Of a stretch of DNA of 64,000 bases, positions 7,727-33,183 are shown piece after piece; the first letter of the stretch is position 1, and the number at the start of each line of letters is the position of its first letter. Origin of the DNA: a virus (taxonomy: Duplodnaviria > Caudoviricetes). Both the position numbers and the translations under genes were made by a program. The notes under the pieces are model-generated. The model worked only from the letters and a program-made list of their open reading frames with translations. It made no database searches and was not told where the DNA came from. The DNA lies in the IMG/VR virus record IMGVR_UViG_3300038443_002533, positions 96,001-160,000 of that record. One strand, 5' to 3'.

Positions 7727-9163
7727 ATGCGTCGTTTTCAAAAGCTGAGTGTTCCTGTCGTGACCCCGCCGGCGGTGACCCCGTCGAACGAAGGTCTCGG
7801 CACGAACCTGTCGATCGAACAGATGTCGATCGAGCAAATCCTGAAAGACCGTCACGTACCGTCGCTGGAAGAGGAAGTCGTTGATCTGCAAGAAGCCGAT
7901 GCAGCGCAAGCCCAAGCCAGCGCCGACGTGCAAGAAACCGCCCGCGTGGAAGACGTCACCGACGTCATGCTGAACGTGGCCGACACGCTCGAAACCGCCG
8001 AGACGATCACCCCGCAACAAGCCATGCTGACCGACACCGTGTCGGAAATGGCCGTGGCTGGTTCCGACGGTGATCCCGACGACGTGATCCCGACGGCGGC
8101 TGACGTGGTCGAAGAGAAAGTCGCGCTGGAATCGTTCGTCGAAGACATCCGCAAACGTGCTGCCGAGATCTGGCAACGCATCCGTGCGTTCTGCCTGGAA
8201 ATCTGGAAGACCATCAAGGAATTCTTCGCTCGCATTTTCCACGCTGCTCCGCGCCTGCTGGCGCGCGTCAAAGAACTGCGCGACATCGCTACCGAGAAGA
8301 AGAAAACCTTCGGTTCGGCCGACCCGGCACAGGCGACGGTGCTGCCGATGGCTGGCACCAACTCCATTTCCTATCCGGACTACATGGTGCACAACACCAA
8401 GGAACTGGCCAAGGGTCTGGGTGAACTGGGCAGCCTCGCCAAGTATGCGTTCGGTCCGTACCTGAAGGACTGTCGATCGATGGGCGACTATGTCGCGACC
8501 GAACTGAAGAAGTTCGATCCGAAGCATGCCGCTGATCACCTGAAGAACGTCGCCCTGAACGTGCAGAAGAACAACTTCACCAGCTGGCCGGGCAATCCCC
8601 AGACCGGTTACCTGGGTTGCTTCGACATCGATCCGGTTCGTCTGGACAAGAACAAGACGAAAGATCTGAGCTACGCGCAGATCACCGCGGCCCTGCGTAA
8701 CAGCGGCATGAAGTTGCGCCCGCGTCAAGGCCGCGCTGGCCTCATCAACACCAAGAACGAGTTTGCTACCATGACCTTCGCGGAAATGGAACAAACCCTG
8801 AGCCTGGTGGAGAGTCTGGTCAAGCAAGTCGTCGCGTTCGAAAGCTCGGCTGATGGCAAAGCTGTCGAGAAGACCCGTCAGGATCTGATCGAGGGCGGTA
8901 ACCACGCGTCGATTGAGATCGGCAAGTTCGGCGGCCAAGACCCGGCTGGCAACCAAGAGCGCATGTACGCGATGGACGTGATGAAGGCCCTGGCCAACTT
9001 CAACACCACGCTGACGCGCTGGATGACCGAGCTGACCATGCCGGTCACCAAGAAGATCTACCAGACCGCCCGCACTTCGCTGGTCCTGGTTGAGAAGTCG
9101 CTGAGCCAATACAAAACGGCTCCTGCGTCGGCTACCCCGGCGGCTGGTGGCATTGCTGCCTAA
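7727..9163 (+). CDS. Internal head protein, paralog of 6205-7626
   Basis: 478 aa; SIE, SLE and ALES sites; the ALESFVEDIRKRAAEIWQRIRAFCLEIW segment matches the paralog's AAESIAEKAKELWGKIVEMF. Confidence 0.75.
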   Translation: MRRFQKLSVPVVTPPAVTPSNEGLGTNLSIEQMSIEQILKDRHVPSLEEEVVDLQEADAAQAQASADVQETARVEDVTDVMLNVADTLETAETITPQQAMLTDTVSEMAVAGSDGDPDDVIPTAADVVEEKVALESFVEDIRKRAAEIWQRIRAFCLEIWKTIKEFFARIFHAAPRLLARVKELRDIATEKKKTFGSADPAQATVLPMAGTNSISYPDYMVHNTKELAKGLGELGSLAKYAFGPYLKDCRSMGDYVATELKKFDPKHAADHLKNVALNVQKNNFTSWPGNPQTGYLGCFDIDPVRLDKNKTKDLSYAQITAALRNSGMKLRPRQGRAGLINTKNEFATMTFAEMEQTLSLVESLVKQVVAFESSADGKAVEKTRQDLIEGGNHASIEIGKFGGQDPAGNQERMYAMDVMKALANFNTTLTRWMTELTMPVTKKIYQTARTSLVLVEKSLSQYKTAPASATPAAGGIAA

Positions 9164-9180
9164 GTCGGTTACATGAATGG

Positions 9181-9220
9181 ACTGCCCAGCCCCATCAGGG
9201 CTGGGTGGTCTATTTATGTC
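9181..9220 (+). terminator. Terminator-like hairpin followed by the TTTATGTCGTC motif
   Basis: ACTGCCCAGCCC/GGGCTGGGTGGT stem; TATG at 9215-9218. Confidence 0.6.
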
Positions 9221-9273
9221 GTCACGCGGCGAGGATGTTATGAAGCTAAAACCGTTTCCATTAGGAACCCATC

Positions 9274-10827
9274 ATGCCCATGATTTCACTTCCGATTCCG
9301 GAGACTGTGGAGAGCGTGACCCGTCCAGTGATGTTGGACGTCGTGCGTCAACTCATGACCCTCACCGGCATTTCGAAAAAGACCAACATCGTTTACTTCG
9401 GCGATTTGGAACGTTCCAAACAATTGAATTCCGCCATTGGTGCTTCGGATGAAAAGGATGACCCGAACACTTTTGCGCACAATGACAAGATTTCGATTGA
9501 AGTGGCTGAAACCTACTTCAATGAACTCGGCCACCAAGATGCGGTCGAGCGCCCTGAGAATTTGCTGGTGTTCCAAGATGCCCCGCTGTCGATCGTCATG
9601 AAGCCGATCTATGCCCAAATGGAAGCCACTGTCAGCATTCGCTTCCGGGCCAATAACAAAACCCTGGCGATGCAATGGCGTGACTTCGTCAAAGCTCGCC
9701 TGACCCAAAGCTTCAAACGCGAGTTGTACCTGCACAACGTCACGTATTCGTTCGGTATTCCGGAGGAGTGTTTGTACATTCTGAAGGAGCTGCATCGACT
9801 GCGCGAGAACGTTGCGGGTTTCGGTGAAGACTTCGATACCTACTTCGCCAATCACCGCACACCCAAAATGACCACGGTGCGTAACTTGAGCGCTACCGCG
9901 CAACTCTGGTCCGTACCTGAAACCCAGACCCGCATCCAAGGTTGGTTCGATTGGGAGTTGCCGGAAGAAGCGCAGAAAGATGCTGACGGGACCACGTACA
10001 CGGTCGCGTTCAATTACAAGTTCCGCTATGCACGCCCGACCCGGATCGAGATGATTTACCCGATCATGGTGCATAACCAGTTGCTCGACGCTAAATACCG
10101 CGACACCCCGCTGACGGATCCGAGTGACGTGGAAAAGAGCTACGCCATGACGGCGCGGATCTTCCGTTCGTTTGAAGGGGGGCAGTGGGATTGTAAACAG
10201 ATCCAAGACTTTGGCTTTTCGATTCCGGCGTTCGATGAGTTCTGGCCCAAGATGGTACCGAACGACACCCGGCGTCTGCTCACGGTGTTGTTCACGCTCG
10301 ATGATACCAATCCCCATCAGTTCTTGAACCTGGGTGATTTGAAGTCTCGTCAGCTCCATCCGGATATTCTGGAGTACATCCGCTCCGAACGGGAGTACTT
10401 GACGGTGCCAGGGTTGAGTGCGATTCATTTGGCGCTGTACAAGAATGAATTCCTGATCGCCAACAATCCCGCCCCCTTTAATGTCGATGCCGACCTGAAC
10501 GTCGTTGGGTTGTTGTCGACCAATCTGCGGGTGCAGCATCATTTGCGCATCAGTTTGTTCACTGACTGGCAAAGTCTGCGCGGTGGTGCGTTGCAGCGCA
10601 TGCAAGACCATGGCCGGGCGGCGATCCTGATGTTGATGGCGATTGACCCGTCGCTCAAGGACCGCGGTTTGTTGCCGGTGCTGATTGACGATAACTTCGT
10701 CTCCAAGACCAGCCTCTTGATTGCGATCAACAATCTGCGCCCAACCAAGAACATCCTCACCCCGGGACCGACTGGCATGATGTATACCGTCCAGTCGATG
10801 TTCCAAGAAACCTTTGCGGTGGAATAA
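9274..10827 (+). CDS. Virion structural protein, phiKZ gp98-like
   Basis: 517 aa; size and position in the conserved block. Confidence 0.6.
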   Translation: MPMISLPIPETVESVTRPVMLDVVRQLMTLTGISKKTNIVYFGDLERSKQLNSAIGASDEKDDPNTFAHNDKISIEVAETYFNELGHQDAVERPENLLVFQDAPLSIVMKPIYAQMEATVSIRFRANNKTLAMQWRDFVKARLTQSFKRELYLHNVTYSFGIPEECLYILKELHRLRENVAGFGEDFDTYFANHRTPKMTTVRNLSATAQLWSVPETQTRIQGWFDWELPEEAQKDADGTTYTVAFNYKFRYARPTRIEMIYPIMVHNQLLDAKYRDTPLTDPSDVEKSYAMTARIFRSFEGGQWDCKQIQDFGFSIPAFDEFWPKMVPNDTRRLLTVLFTLDDTNPHQFLNLGDLKSRQLHPDILEYIRSEREYLTVPGLSAIHLALYKNEFLIANNPAPFNVDADLNVVGLLSTNLRVQHHLRISLFTDWQSLRGGALQRMQDHGRAAILMLMAIDPSLKDRGLLPVLIDDNFVSKTSLLIAINNLRPTKNILTPGPTGMMYTVQSMFQETFAVE

Positions 10828-10834
10828 TTCTATC

Positions 10835-11614
10835 ATGCCGATTATTGAAGACACTCCCTTGACCCCACCGGTGAATCCGCCGGTGGCTGTGACCGTTGTG
10901 CCTCCTGAACACCGGGGCGTAACGGTTGACACAATAAGTCCAATAACGCCGCTTAAAGACCTGTCTGAAAATAGTGGTTTGGATAGGGAACATCCTATCG
11001 GCATATACGTTGCCAATAACAGTCAAACCGGCGACTACTACATTGGTGCTACAACCGAAAGAAAAAGAAGATTGCCGGAACATCTGAGTAAGCTCAATAC
11101 AGGATCGCATAGTAACCAGAAATTTCAAGAATCTTTTAATAGAAACTCTGATTTTGAATGGTTAGAGATTCCGATTGTCACCAGAGAAGATGCTTTTAGC
11201 TTGGAAAGGGATCTTATCAAAGCTTGTCGGGGAGATCCGCATTGCTTGAACTTGAAGGATGCTGTTCCGGTATCTGAAGAAACAAGAGAAAAACACAGAC
11301 AGTACCAGCTTGGTAAAAAGATGCCGGACGGCTTTTCAGAGAAACTTAGCGGCGTGCTGCTAGAACGATGGAAAGATCCTGAGTTCGTGCAGAAGCAAAG
11401 GGAAGCTAGAGTCGGCAGGACTCTTTCTGAAGAACATAAAGCAAATATTCGAGCTTCTAGTTCGTTCACGAAGAGTTCGGTTCCAGTGAATATTGATGGG
11501 GTGATTTACCCAAGTGTTAGGGACGCAAGCACCGCACTTAATGTTCCTTATACCACTGCTGCTAAAAGACTTAATAGTCCGAACTTTCCTAGTTGGGAAA
11601 GATTATCTCCATAA
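10835..11614 (+). CDS. GIY-YIG homing endonuclease fused to the first 33 codons of the interrupted structural gene
   Basis: GIYVANNSQTGDYYIG motif, downstream R (RRLPEH), E (LERDL) and N (CLN); NUMOD3-like SEETREK and SEEHKANI repeats; C-terminal VNIDGVIYPSVRDAS HTH-type module. Confidence 0.9.
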   Translation: MPIIEDTPLTPPVNPPVAVTVVPPEHRGVTVDTISPITPLKDLSENSGLDREHPIGIYVANNSQTGDYYIGATTERKRRLPEHLSKLNTGSHSNQKFQESFNRNSDFEWLEIPIVTREDAFSLERDLIKACRGDPHCLNLKDAVPVSEETREKHRQYQLGKKMPDGFSEKLSGVLLERWKDPEFVQKQREARVGRTLSEEHKANIRASSSFTKSSVPVNIDGVIYPSVRDASTALNVPYTTAAKRLNSPNFPSWERLSP

Positions 11615-11728
11615 CAAATGGTGAAATAAATGCCTATAATCGAAGATACACCTCTGACTCCTCCGGTTGATCCTCCTATTGCTGTTAAGGTTGTTTCCCC
11701 TGAGTTTAGAGGTTCGACCGTCGACACA
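10934..11728 (+). mobile_element. Free-standing homing endonuclease element carrying a recoded replacement 5' end for its target gene
   Basis: 795 bp, visibly AT-rich. Removing it leaves ...GACACA|CGCTAC..., an intact gp99-like ORF starting at 10835. Confidence 0.8.
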
Positions 11729-12994
11729 CGCTACGAATCGATGCGCTCGCTCCTGAGCCATATCGAAGGTGCGTCCTGGTCGGTGAACTACTACAGCCAA
11801 GTGCTGGGCAAAGACAATGCCCTGTCTGGCCAGAATCTCGATCGTCCCGCTGCCTACCAACAGTACAAACTGATCGAAGACTTTGAACTGAAAGTCACGA
11901 CCCCGCTCAATACCACCCAAGACCAAACCACCAAAGAATTCAACGTCACCGGCCAGGCCCATGTGTTTCCCTGCGGCTTGATCCCGAATGACGGGGACTG
12001 CTTTATTGCCGACGTAGGCGATGGTCGGGAAGCGGTGTTTGAAATCACCAATTCCGAGAAACGCTCGTTCTTGCCGGATGCGGCGTATATCGTCGATTAC
12101 AAGATCGTGGCGTGGTCGGAGCAAGACAGCCGGATCCAAGACCTCAACAGCAAAGTGATCCAGACCCTGCATCTCAGCACCGAGATGATGGACAATGGCC
12201 AGCGCGGTCTGATCGACATCGATGACTTCACCTTGAGCGTGAAGCTGCAAGGGTACCATAACGAGATCGTCGACTACTACTTCTCGCGCTTCATGAGCCG
12301 GGATTTGCGCACGCTGGTGTTGCCGGGTCAAGACTACGCGATTTACGACCCGTTCCTGACGCATGCCGTATTGGCGATGCTGCGCGATGAACAACATCCC
12401 AACATCAAACTCATCCGTGAACTGAATGTCGGGGAAGACGATAACTACTTGACCCCGACCATCTGGACCGCGCTGAACAAGAAACGGCGTAAGGAGTTGG
12501 TGGGTGGGATGCAAAAGGTGGGCCTGGTTTCTACTCGCGCTTTCACGCGTGAACCCAGCATGAACTCGATCCGCTATTCGGGGATTGATTACGTGGTGTA
12601 TCCGATCGATCCAGTCAAGTCCATCGACTACCTGCAACACGACCAAACCAAACCGTTGAGTGATGTGCTCATCAAAGGCACCTCGACCGCGTTGGTGGAT
12701 TTGTTTGATGTGATCCAGATCACCGAACTGAATGGCTTGCCGAGCTTCGATGCTCCAGCCGTCAACCGTTCGCAAAACGACACCTACGTGTTTTCCCCTC
12801 AATTTTACCAACGCACCAATCCGGGTCAATCGGCATTGGAATTGGCCTTCCAGAACTACCTGGACGATCGCGCCATTCCACTACGCACGCTGTTACAGAT
12901 GAGCGTCAGCTACACCAGCTGGGCGCCGCTGGAACAGTTCTATCAACTGCCGATGCTGCTCGCAATGATCCGTGGTGCTCTCCGGAGAATGTAA
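11630..12994 (+). CDS. Virion structural protein, phiKZ gp99-like (codons 1-33 supplied by the homing element)
   Basis: 454 aa; WSVNYYSQVLG and GLIPNDGDCFIADVGDGR motifs; synteny. Confidence 0.65.
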   Translation: MPIIEDTPLTPPVDPPIAVKVVSPEFRGSTVDTRYESMRSLLSHIEGASWSVNYYSQVLGKDNALSGQNLDRPAAYQQYKLIEDFELKVTTPLNTTQDQTTKEFNVTGQAHVFPCGLIPNDGDCFIADVGDGREAVFEITNSEKRSFLPDAAYIVDYKIVAWSEQDSRIQDLNSKVIQTLHLSTEMMDNGQRGLIDIDDFTLSVKLQGYHNEIVDYYFSRFMSRDLRTLVLPGQDYAIYDPFLTHAVLAMLRDEQHPNIKLIRELNVGEDDNYLTPTIWTALNKKRRKELVGGMQKVGLVSTRAFTREPSMNSIRYSGIDYVVYPIDPVKSIDYLQHDQTKPLSDVLIKGTSTALVDLFDVIQITELNGLPSFDAPAVNRSQNDTYVFSPQFYQRTNPGQSALELAFQNYLDDRAIPLRTLLQMSVSYTSWAPLEQFYQLPMLLAMIRGALRRM

Positions 12995-13710
12995 TGGGTT
13001 ATATTCCAGAGTCGCAACGTACCACTGGCTGGTACTTGTTTAACAAACTGTTTCAAGTGCGCATCAACCCGCACCATGCACGTACTGCGGATGAGATCAA
13101 GCGCTATGGCACCCCGACCACCGGCAATGAAGACGTCGACCGGGAAATGGACAAGTACGAGCAAATCGTGATGTGGTCGATTGCGCGACTGGAAGCGCAC
13201 TTCAGCAGCGGGTACCCGGTCAAGTTCGTCAAGCGCAGTGATTGCGATGAAGTCTATCGCTTGCTTCAAAACCACTTGATGGCCATGCAACAAGCCTTGA
13301 CGGTGTCGGAAAACGTGACGGGCAATCCCGAGACCATGGCGGAACTGGTGCGCCTCGACCAATTCGCTGAAGCAGTGTTTCAGTACGCCCGGCACGGCAT
13401 GCGTGATAGCCTGGAGCATGCTGGCTTTGCCCGTCGGGCCCGAGCGCGGGACCCGTTCGCCAAACTTGGGTCAAAGATCCGCAATCGCCAGTTGGAGACG
13501 GATGCCCCCAAAGAAACCCTGCCGGGTGGCTCCAGTGTGGGGCGGCAATACGGCACCCACGCGGACATGGTGGCACAAACCCCACCGGTGGTCAACGAGA
13601 ACGGGGTGATGGAGTTGGATCCGATTGTGGAAGATCCGAACCTACCGCGTCGTACGAGCCTGGCGAAGTTGTTTGAAGAACGGCGTCAACTCGGGCTCCA
13701 GTGGAAATAA
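12994..13710 (+). CDS. Conserved protein, phiKZ gp100-like
   Basis: 238 aa, start overlaps the upstream stop (TAATG); synteny. Confidence 0.55.
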   Translation: MGYIPESQRTTGWYLFNKLFQVRINPHHARTADEIKRYGTPTTGNEDVDREMDKYEQIVMWSIARLEAHFSSGYPVKFVKRSDCDEVYRLLQNHLMAMQQALTVSENVTGNPETMAELVRLDQFAEAVFQYARHGMRDSLEHAGFARRARARDPFAKLGSKIRNRQLETDAPKETLPGGSSVGRQYGTHADMVAQTPPVVNENGVMELDPIVEDPNLPRRTSLAKLFEERRQLGLQWK

Positions 13711-31900: not shown

Positions 31901-32112
31901 TCGATTTCGCGGACTCCTCCAAAGCATCGCTGGGGCCGTGGACGGCGAACATCGTGGGTAAACGCTGGTCGGCTCAGTTCACGGGCCTGTCGGGTGTCTT
32001 CAGTGTACGTGCAGTCGGTACGGCGAATAACCAACCGGCGGTTACTGTCAACAGTAACTCGTTCAAGGTCATCAACTACAAGGGTAACTTCAAAGTCCCC
32101 CTGTCGTGGTAA
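28951..32112 (+). CDS. Tail spike-like protein with two beta-helix modules and Ig-like spacers (1053 aa)
   Basis: TKTIGSAAGRDYSTIQAF recurs as VKSIGTGKDFATIKAF; both modules end in DFR...LIG...D..G..R...D.GA. Confidence 0.65.
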   Translation: MATITKTIGSAAGRDYSTIQAFIDSIPADLVAAGFCYTGLVYNDSEFNDTTGKVNIASKNTDSTHFITLQCAPGQSFSTNPNRANNALWYSQANGVAIHAILNSSTTFNIAVPYTVIDGFQINATGTGAIAITANATGVMVKNCLFAGQPASSIAYGLTQVAGGATMQDCLVLVTASGAGAGIKMTNGTVINCTVAKPPQFSLGASEKSQAISFNYGTNVVKNCALFGFANQDATPNSYSASDYNATDWNQAPGGTAATHNLLSLVYANQFVNNANDFRLKAGSDLIGKAINLSATYQTTDIIGTARQTNWDIGAYAAITPANALSLSGPTLGQVNQVSSNFTVAANGQVSGSVTVTPSDGGKGGTFNPSSFTMTGVSPSVTFTYTPSQTGNINISISNNGTLANPAAITYNSVLPATQVMLSGPALARAGVQSANFTAQLDGYVATAVKVIPNDNGDGGTFTPVFVMLDSNTPSATFTYTGASGGVKTIATTNDSSLTNHSVSITEKPPIVPVPTPSTPTLVVKSIGTGKDFATIKAFTDFAAAFDLTANQQSLLGEVYESSTVSAQSSFSAKNPTSQFNVTLQPVPGTSANYLDKGYPADYGTEGIELTISNQWLVGAGTVLQDFRFNTTGSSGCITMGGGNSLFYPVFQRNRVKASGTAITSVWAGQYVGPGVVTDCLFILDDGSTSTALNGQQAKLTCKRNTFVRKGSASGYLLSFNANQTPSLGTIIANNVFINAGNTPVNYLNLVAAANVYNNYTDNGQASPIAGITTVLAGSGTNLVRNTTSDFRPDDAGALIGHASEGAIDMLDLYSVGRGGTPDVGAIQGTVINVLPVVAISAQDVNCQRIVVTGTTRYTPTSGTALLLPDPNNPNGAVQQGPTNVVLSAGAFSVQWDNVPAGNYLTPVVTLVNSSGYNRVQTGGDVINIIPVSAAIVAAEASPTQGNAPVITFDNRRGFDNNTFNIGGTVDTQGDPNCSIKVYVDFADSSKASLGPWTANIVGKRWSAQFTGLSGVFSVRAVGTANNQPAVTVNSNSFKVINYKGNFKVPLSW

Positions 32113-32118
32113 TTGAAT

Positions 32119-32166
32119 GACATAGGCTCCTCTACCCTTCGGGGTAGGGGAGTTTATGCTGTCTGT
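32119..32166 (+). terminator. Terminator ending the structural region, CATA-hairpin-TTTATG type
   Basis: GACATA GGCTCCTCTACCC-TTCG-GGGTAGGGGAGT TTATGCTGTCTGT. Confidence 0.8.
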
Positions 32167-32258
32167 TGTAAAGTCGAGTCCTAAGGGACTCTCTTCTCTT
32201 GTCTTATGAATTCCAGAGAGATCAGAGAAGCTGAGTAGTAGAGGAGTATAAGGAAGTG

Positions 32259-32283
32259 AGCTAGTAGCATTATGCTACTAGCT
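32259..32283. repeat. 12 bp perfect inverted repeat with a 1 nt spacer
   Basis: AGCTAGTAGCAT-T-ATGCTACTAGCT. Confidence 0.85.
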
Positions 32284-32299
32284 ATTATAGAGAGCAAAA

Positions 32300-32328
32300 G
32301 GGGGTATGGGGAATGGGGGATGGAAGGG
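32300..32328 (+). other. Potential G-quadruplex-forming sequence
   Basis: G5-TAT-G4-AAT-G5-ATGGAA-G3 fits the G3+N1-7 four-tract rule. Confidence 0.6.
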
Positions 32329-32398
32329 TACGCAAGCGAAACCTCTACCAGCCGTAAGGCCAGTAGCGAGTATTTCACTCAATGGATGAATGGCGCTA

Positions 32399-32428
32399 GA
32401 TAAATTTAAACACATATTACCAGTATGT
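32399..32428 (+). promoter_or_regulatory. phiKZ-type early (virion RNAP) promoter candidate
   Basis: AT-rich TAAATTTAAACA then CATATTAC (32413-32420), one mismatch from the phiKZ early consensus TATATTAC; heads the accessory region. Confidence 0.6.
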
Positions 32429-32475
32429 GCTGGGGAATAGAAGCACTTAACAGACAACTAACAACAACGGAGTTA

Positions 32476-32985
32476 ATGATGCTGAGCAAAGAAGACGAGA
32501 AGAAGTATCTGAAACAGATGCAAGACGGCATGTATCTGGCTCTGGAAGCTGCGCACTATCTCGGTGGTCGGATGGAAATCAACTACTTGCCAAAAGTGGA
32601 ATACAAACCCAAAGCAGGTGACAAGAATTTCCCGAAGGGAAGCAACATCAATGAGCGGATCGTCGAAGCGGAAAAAGCGATTGAGATCTACAAGGCGATG
32701 TTGGACGGCAAGACCGCTAAAGAACTTAAGGAGTTGTTCAATCTGAAAAGCAGTTATGTACCGCAATATTATCATCCGGTCCAGATTGCAGTTCAGATTG
32801 AACTGCTCAAGAAGCGTTATGACAACGCCCCTTATCAACCACGTGTCGTTGACCCAAAAACACGGCAACGTTACTATGATGATAGTGTACATCAGCTGCG
32901 CCGACACAAAGACTTCCTGCTGAAAGTCATCGCTAATGCGAATAAAGACCGGTTTATGGCTGTCGTCTTGAAATACATCTATTAA
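32476..32985 (+). CDS. Hypothetical early protein
   Basis: Start moved to 32476 after the ACAACAACGGAG leader; basic, no recognised motif. Confidence 0.7.
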   Translation: MMLSKEDEKKYLKQMQDGMYLALEAAHYLGGRMEINYLPKVEYKPKAGDKNFPKGSNINERIVEAEKAIEIYKAMLDGKTAKELKELFNLKSSYVPQYYHPVQIAVQIELLKKRYDNAPYQPRVVDPKTRQRYYDDSVHQLRRHKDFLLKVIANANKDRFMAVVLKYIY

Positions 32986-32994
32986 GGAATTGCC

Positions 32995-33183
32995 ATGAGC
33001 GTCATGCGTAGTCATGTATTACAAGCCAAAGATAGTCTACGGCAAGCCACCACCCTCGTGGACAATCTGGAGCAAGACAATCCCGAACTACAAGAACTCA
33101 AGAACGCCGCTAAGCAAGCCTCGCAAGCCGCGGAAGTCTTGAACCGTCTGGTTGGCACGCGAATGGCCACATCCGCCAAGTAG
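32995..33183 (+). CDS. Small coiled-coil hypothetical protein
   Basis: 62 aa, RBS AAGGA. Confidence 0.6.
   Translation: MSVMRSHVLQAKDSLRQATTLVDNLEQDNPELQELKNAAKQASQAAEVLNRLVGTRMATSAK

Follow-up and report, generated by a model that had tools for sequence, protein, structure and literature searches.

In synthetic home-and-rescue or cleave-and-rescue gene drives, a nuclease directed against an essential gene travels with a re-spelled, cleavage-immune rescue copy of the targeted segment. Among natural systems, mORF gene hybrids have been described in fungal mitochondria, in atp6, atp9, cox2, and nad3 of Glomus sp. (Beaudet et al. 2013, PMC3630166) and in atp6 of Allomyces macrogynus (Paquin et al. 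1994, as reported in PMC3630166). The duplicates in the mORF hybrids are 63.5% identical in DNA and 91% identical in protein (PMC3630166), and the parallel with these elements that was drawn in an earlier, sequence-only reading of the locus described here is real. In the MobA/gene 60 cassette of T4-like phages, a homologous region (HomR) of 67 to 81% DNA identity takes the place of target sequence and contains the cut site (Bonocora et al. 2011, as summarized in bioRxiv 10.1101/2022.08.31.505936; reviewed in PMC2988022). The sequence-only reading knew of no element in jumbo phages that replaces the 5' end of its target. Literature searches, whose incomplete coverage makes them weak evidence of novelty, returned no paper on a phage endonuclease with a duplicated 5' gene end, but HomR is a precedent for a carried, diverged replacement (bioRxiv 10.1101/2022.08.31.505936), so that the arrangement has more precedent than that reading assumed.

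We analyzed a window of 64,000 nucleotides, positions 96,001 to 160,000 of the IMG/VR record IMGVR_UViG_3300038443_002533. Its gp99-type neck/tail-adaptor gene probably holds a homing endonuclease cassette of the home-and-rescue type, intron-less and intein-less, whose cleavage, mobility, and fusion we infer. The record is a complete virus genome of 272,470 bp with direct terminal repeats, and its phiKZ internal-head-protein gene (7727 to 9163), together with the PF24214/PF24215 neck gene, assigns the phage by gene content to the phiKZ-like jumbo phages. Rhizosphere metagenome is the label of the sequencing run whose contig covers the whole stretch, a run that may be the stretch's own source.

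All features of the locus lie on the + strand. Gene A (9274 to 10827; 517 aa; phrog_3289, E = 5e-104) is followed after 7 nt by an ORF of 259 codons (10835 to 11614), then, after 15 nt, by an ORF of 454 codons (11630 to 12994) and by more genes of the structural block. The 259-codon ORF encodes the endonuclease and consists of 33 host-derived and 226 own residues; its 5' end (10835 to 10933) is made of the stranded native codons 1 to 33 of the neck gene. The insert of 795 bp that is absent from relatives (10934 to 11728) comprises the endonuclease body, its stop, a 15-nt spacer (11615 to 11629) with the element's own SD, GGTGA (11620 to 11624), 5 nt before the ATG, and replacement codons 1 to 33 (11630 to 11728), which have a T/A-ending spelling and are in frame with the gene core. 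The native core, codons 34 to 454 of this phiKZ gp99 homologue (11729 to 12994), matches PF24214 and PF24215 (E ~1e-54), and the 454-aa protein finds PDB entries 9xps (PHIKZ099) and 11ed, the latter with a chain whose deposited name is "tail adaptor protein." In the public annotation, the call P0002 (417 aa) has the neck gene begin at Met38 and omits the T-rich replacement copy, so that the duplication is invisible in protein-level annotation.

An SD-like GGTGGA (10818 to 10823) inside the last codons of gene A serves the start at 10835. With only 7 nt between the stop of gene A and this ATG, the endonuclease has no promoter of its own here and rides in the structural operon; its "late" timing of expression is assumed from the class of the surrounding genes. 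A promoter and terminator scan of 9000 to 13200 found sites no more numerous than in shuffled sequence. Nowhere else does the GC content of the genome dip as low as around the insert (0.417 over 600 bp). A second low-GC island of the window, at 31995 to 33105, reaches a minimum of 0.437 over 600 bp, and its ORFs have no Pfam match.

The ATGs at 10835 and 11630 each open a stretch of 33 codons, and the two stretches are identical at 27 of 33 residues, 8 of 33 codons, and 66 of 99 bases, the first two counts agreeing exactly with those given in the sequence-only reading. Similarity stops at the boundary of codons 33 and 34, which reads GACACA/ATAAGT on the left and GACACA/CGCTAC on the right; the shared GACACA leaves each boundary of the insert ambiguous by up to 6 nt. 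Deleting 10934 to 11728 in silico yields one ORF that is colinear with the homologues (GVTVDT/RYES across the join), confirming the earlier statement that removal of this segment restores a single gene. The pair was detected at an E value of ~2e-11 in a six-frame self-comparison of the 272-kb genome, where it was the sole short duplicate of such a kind between adjacent ORFs. In 100,000 trials with 33 bases changed at random, 14 residues on average and never more than 22 stayed the same; the 27 observed (P < 1e-5) thus put the match between the copies beyond chance. The Nei-Gojobori method gives a pS of 0.89 and a pN of 0.13, with synonymous sites saturated. This pS was rejected as a sign that the copies are more different than random, the third positions differing at about 23 of 33, near the 0.74 expected from the third-position compositions of both copies. 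The bases of the two repeats have diverged by 33%, and their longest identical run is 6 nt, which would be too short for efficient recombination.

Two details of the downstream copy and its leader deserve mention. Codon 29 of the downstream copy (11714 to 11716) encodes Ser, at a position that is Val in the stranded copy and in at least 90% of the aligned homologues. The difference amounts to a change of two to three bases about 13 nt from the junction and, as a matter of speculation, might be part of what the enzyme recognizes. Immediately ahead of the downstream ATG, 12 nt (11618 to 11629, ATGGTGAAATAA) are identical at 9 of 12 positions to the last four codons of gene A (10816 to 10827, GCGGTGGAATAA), a likeness that may be a remnant of the end of a donor's gene A or a convergence on the SD-like GGTG.

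What does the target look like in phages that lack the insert? In two relatives from IMG/VR, L001 and L002, whose neck proteins are 79% and 76% identical to that of our phage, gene A is followed after 10 to 13 nt by a single neck-gene start. A profile-based scan extended this to 78 related IMG/VR loci, all 78 of which have a single N-terminus, none both copies, and no endonuclease match; where tblastn found a gene A match among them, that match in every case immediately precedes the neck gene. The site is thus occupied here and empty in the 78 fetched loci, a presence/absence polymorphism at a conserved position, in line with the earlier claim that a structural gene was interrupted behind its codon 33. 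The neck N-terminus is kept in more than 100 homologous proteins, and it is the best-conserved motif of this N-terminus, VDT/RY, that the insert interrupts, with G28, V31, D32, and Y35 nearly invariant. A conserved target site is the expected choice of a homing endonuclease. A DNA search of 50,697 phage records with 10000 to 12994 gave no match, the relatives found there being protein-level ones of at most 37% identity, and a metagenome scan with the endonuclease body, together with exact-pattern scans for the spacer/start and the right junction, returned no second occupied allele.

The two copies are spelled differently. GC3 is 0.58 in the upstream copy, 0.37 in the endonuclease body, 0.33 in the downstream copy, and 0.72 in the remainder of the gene. 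We computed a codon score, the log-likelihood ratio of synonymous codons under host genes versus the endonuclease, and compared it with 103 independent gene starts and 1287 inner windows. The downstream copy scores -24.6, under all 103 gene starts and under all but 1 of the 1287 inner windows, and the upstream copy scores -5.3, the 7th percentile of the 103 gene starts. The contrast drawn in the sequence-only reading accordingly stands for the downstream copy, which is endonuclease-like, and needs qualifying for the upstream copy, which is genome-like yet at the low end of the range. In the downstream copy, CCT encodes six of seven Pro (host use of CCT, 9%) and GTT four of five Val, 17 of 33 codons end in T, and both ATA and AGA, rare in the host, are present. 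With the relative L002, the upstream copy has 75 of 99 bases in common and the downstream copy 65 of 99. Codon score, GC3, and base identity to L002 together mark the joined copy as the putatively foreign one and the stranded copy as the putatively native one. With host-like spelling at codons 30 to 33 of the downstream copy, the foreign tract may extend no further than about 11716.

Where might the T-rich spelling have come from? In residues, the downstream copy matches the upstream copy at 27 of 33 positions and L002 equally at 27 of 33. The clade of nearest relatives is GC-rich here (GC3 of 0.61 to 0.70), and the protein sequence of the downstream copy is typical of that clade. Since its protein is closest to the phage's own GC-rich clade, a foreign AT-rich donor is not evident among the known relatives; either the donor is unsampled, or the copy was re-spelled by selection. 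The translation-initiation region of the downstream copy folds at -9.1 kcal/mol, compared to -21.3 kcal/mol for the identical leader with the native codons.

The insert gene is predicted to encode an intact I-TevI-like GIY-YIG endonuclease. Its ORF matches PF01541 with 28.6 bits (E = 1.8e-6; cut-off, 22.6), with the catalytic domain at residues 56 to 130 (11000 to 11224), and the whole protein matches the PHROG 314 homing endonuclease (E = 1e-22). Y58, Y69, G71, R79, H83, H92, E124, and N139 are all present, in invariant or nearly invariant columns, with an I-TevI-like spacing of the catalytic residues. The catalytic domain of I-TevI (1mk0/1ln0) was matched by sequence, and the catalytic-domain model has a pLDDT of >90 and a TM score of 0.77 to 1ln0. 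At the C-terminus, a candidate I-TevI-type DNA-binding module (residues 217 to 254; 11483 to 11596) matches PF20987 with 18.6 bits, under the cut-off of 27, and the Foldseek comparison of the C-terminal part with I-TevI 1i3j (probability, 1.00; TM, 0.47; E = 0.12) is a weak likeness. Residues 148 to 256 are confidently modeled, and the NFPxW tail is conserved in relatives. The best enzyme relative in an exhaustive profile search is 44% identical, and word-index searches for close or shorter endonuclease relatives recovered only the window's own protein. In the three relatives whose contexts we inspected, the enzyme gene is free-standing, in one case in a phiKZ-like contig, and never beside a neck gene.

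How the gene could be expressed can be read from the start of the endonuclease ORF. A subgroup of the enzyme relatives carries an N-terminal leader of about 30 residues, and HMMER alignments with these leader-bearing relatives begin at query residues 32 to 34, their residues 5 to 6, meaning that about six own codons, the start included, have been lost and the leader kept. The 57 residues ahead of the GIY tyrosine make the longest such stretch of 74 sequences, for in the 73 relatives the median is 13 and none exceeds 43. The earlier claim that the endonuclease uses the host's start agrees with the structure of its ORF, which continues the reading frame of that stranded native start and has none of its own; the public gene call P0001 begins at the same position (10835). 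Within the element, TTG at codon 49 is the sole in-frame alternative; it lacks a convincing SD but could yield a free, unfused enzyme. On the simplest reading of the sequence, the enzyme would be expressed as a fusion from the ATG of the host gene.

Taken together, the sequence-only reading is supported in large part, and the home-and-rescue cassette would work as follows. The mobile unit would be about 795 bp long (10934 to 11728), limits that rest on one genome and on empty sites at no more than 79% protein identity, and would consist of a start-less endonuclease gene, its stop, an SD, and re-spelled target codons 1 to 33. By inserting between codons 33 and 34, it would place the RBS, ATG, and 33 codons of the host in charge of an endonuclease fusion. 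The element's RBS and replacement codons would in turn rebuild the full-length neck gene (454 aa), and the earlier proposal of a rescue with its own RBS and a synonymously diverged 5' end agrees with the GGTGA and the endonuclease-like codons. When a phage with the cassette and a relative infect the same cell, the enzyme would cleave the relative's intact allele close to codon 33. The cassette would then be copied across during repair, flanked on the left by homology in gene A and the native 33 codons and on the right by homology in the gene core. A base divergence of 33% would shield the rebuilt gene from the enzyme and would also block the recombination between repeats by which the element could be excised.

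A further step can be imagined, namely that the fusion to the N-terminal arm of the neck protein is itself functional, tying the enzyme to late structural expression and taking some of it to the site of assembly or to the virion, inside or on its surface, and that 5'-end cassettes are general and overlooked; we consider this improbable. The suggestion in the sequence-only reading that the 33-aa tag routes the nuclease to the virion found no support, and the first 50 residues of the endonuclease ORF are modeled as disordered. If true, a virion-borne enzyme could act on the empty allele of a relative, whether co-infecting or superinfecting, as soon as entry takes place, and cassettes of the 5'-end home-and-rescue type would offer phage endonucleases a general route into essential genes that has been overlooked.

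The element was also met outside its own record. Contigs of two RNA libraries from an independent study of a root metagenome are unbroken over about 11202 to 11843, running from the 3' half of the endonuclease through the spacer and replacement copy, past the right junction, to ~100 nt into the core. The right junction is therefore no assembly artefact, and a second strain carries the element; with 10530 to 11201 uncovered by these contigs, the independent confirmation is of the right junction only. The bridging contigs are 97.4 to 98.0% identical to our sequence, compared to 92 to 95% for the flanking contigs of genes A and B from the same runs (Fisher P = 4e-6 and 2e-5). Strain divergence in runs X2 and X3 is a mosaic, with 0.6% over 9274 to 9605, ~5% over 9581 to 10529, 2 to 2.6% in the right half of the element, and ~8% over 11823 to 12994. 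The pattern fits an element younger than its flanks, with the reservation that both runs come from one study and that divergence is mosaic. It also fits co-transcription without splicing, although such contigs give neither strand nor level and may include DNA carry-over.

Could the same structure have arisen otherwise? A single accident, as opposed to an element adapted for mobility, would start from a donor relative in which a free-standing endonuclease lay just upstream of the neck gene: after a cut near codon 33, repair on the right would have been homologous and the join on the left illegitimate, within the first codons of the enzyme, so that the recipient's 33 codons were trapped and the duplicate is co-converted donor flank. 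The 12 nt before the downstream ATG do resemble the end of gene A, as a copied donor A-B junction would, only about six endonuclease codons are missing, the relatives of the enzyme are free-standing, and just one occupied lineage is known. Yet none of the 78 related loci has an endonuclease match beside its neck gene, the element region is less diverged than its flanks in the second strain, and the present structure, with its perfect homology arms, would home as a unit whatever its origin; we regard the accident as unlikely. Duplication in place, followed by re-spelling under selection against repeat-mediated loss, self-cleavage, or structure at the start region, would account for a downstream protein sequence that is typical of the phage's own clade and has a MPIIEDTPLTPP prefix common only to the two closest relatives. 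It would also fit third positions as different as in unrelated sequences beside a pN of 0.13, the far less structured start, and the 6-nt limit on identical runs. It is quite unlikely all the same, for the changes are directional, toward T-ending and endonuclease-like codons including ATA and AGA, which would not be expected of random escape changes, and no known mechanism duplicates 99 bp around an insertion.

Two further possibilities were considered. If the neck protein began at Met38, as in the database call P0002, the insertion would have truncated the protein and the copy would be a dead remnant. The frame at 11630 is open behind its GGTGA, however, nothing SD-like lies ahead of Met38, and all full-length homologues retain the N-terminus with its nearly invariant residues; a low score for the T-rich stretch is what one would expect of gene prediction trained on GC-rich coding sequence. 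We hold a dead remnant to be very improbable. Introns and inteins are the usual housing of endonucleases inside genes, and one such intron exists in the same genome. Within 10300 to 12300, however, there was no Rfam match at E values up to 1 and no group I ribozyme around the endonuclease, in the same scan that detected the RF00028 group I intron of the same genome's RNA polymerase gene with 91.4 bits as a positive control. Only 15 bases of the insert are non-coding, the endonuclease ORF ends at its stop (11612 to 11614), and Pfam finds no Hint domain, in keeping with the earlier claim that no splicing is involved. An assembly chimera is opposed by a single 52-kb contig (depth, 147) that spans the stretch, although it may be the source of this DNA, and by the bridging of the right junction in contigs of another study. 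The chance that the locus is a group I intron, an intein, or a chimera is negligible, and a home-and-rescue cassette remains the best explanation.

The same genome houses another endonuclease. Outside the window, its RNA polymerase beta-prime-like gene (G000:C1:62759-65120; L087, 86 to 2450) is broken inside the catalytic NADFDGD motif, between GFNAD and YDGDEMN. The interruption consists of an HNH_3 endonuclease ORF (L087, 1270 to 2064) followed by the RF00028 intron (L087, 2045 to 2370) and lies in a low-GC island. The phage thus holds both solutions, an intron-borne HNH endonuclease and an intron-less cassette.

Besides introns and inteins, a cassette of this kind would give homing endonucleases a third means of inhabiting an essential phage gene, as the element brings a re-spelled gene piece and reuses the orphaned original start for its own expression. 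It would explain the misannotated start of the neck gene in the public gene call. Such cassettes would move short foreign gene ends between phages, a transfer by which phylogenies, and gene callers based on codon usage, can be misled. The empty site and the two occupied junctions are a ready substrate for the question of how GIY-YIG enzymes spare their own genome.

Compared to I-TevI and the Seg enzymes of T4 (1ln0, 1mk0, 1i3j; PMC2988022), the predicted enzyme has the same catalytic fold and residues and a candidate two-domain layout, with the C-terminal module weakly matched here. Its place in a host operon, with no promoter, is shared with several seg and mob genes of T4 (PMC2988022). I-TevI, however, is housed by a self-splicing intron, the Seg enzymes occupy intergenic positions, and none is reported as fused to the N-terminus of its target or accompanied by a duplicate gene end. 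The MobA cassette, as far as the preprint and review cited above describe it, is a phage cassette in a conserved coding site as well, without intron or intein and with a new start for the downstream part, and it too lacks a promoter of its own and rides host transcripts. By the same accounts, MobA is an HNH enzyme that splits a topoisomerase into two polypeptides, needs a 50-nt ribosomal bypass, and adds terminal extensions, whereas the enzyme here is GIY-YIG and the target is rebuilt as a single ORF of 454 aa with no coding gap. MobA is described there as deleting a parental segment of 55 to 75 nt, in contrast to the element here, which keeps the parental segment, fused to the enzyme.

The fungal mORFs come close in another way, being intron-less endonuclease ORFs (LAGLIDADG or GIY-YIG) that travel inside a gene with a foreign copy of the gene end, are often in phase with the gene, and leave the native end stranded. 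They replace the 3' end, so that the stranded end lies downstream and unused, whereas the phage element replaces the 5' end, must bring an RBS and a start, and would reuse the stranded native start for the endonuclease; their host is an organelle and here it is a jumbo phage. The element may thus be seen as the mirror of the fungal mitochondrial 3'-end hybrids. Synthetic drives are built with engineered Cas9 in insects, and the element described here, with a natural, protein-only viral endonuclease, would be the natural counterpart of these engineered home-and-rescue gene drives.
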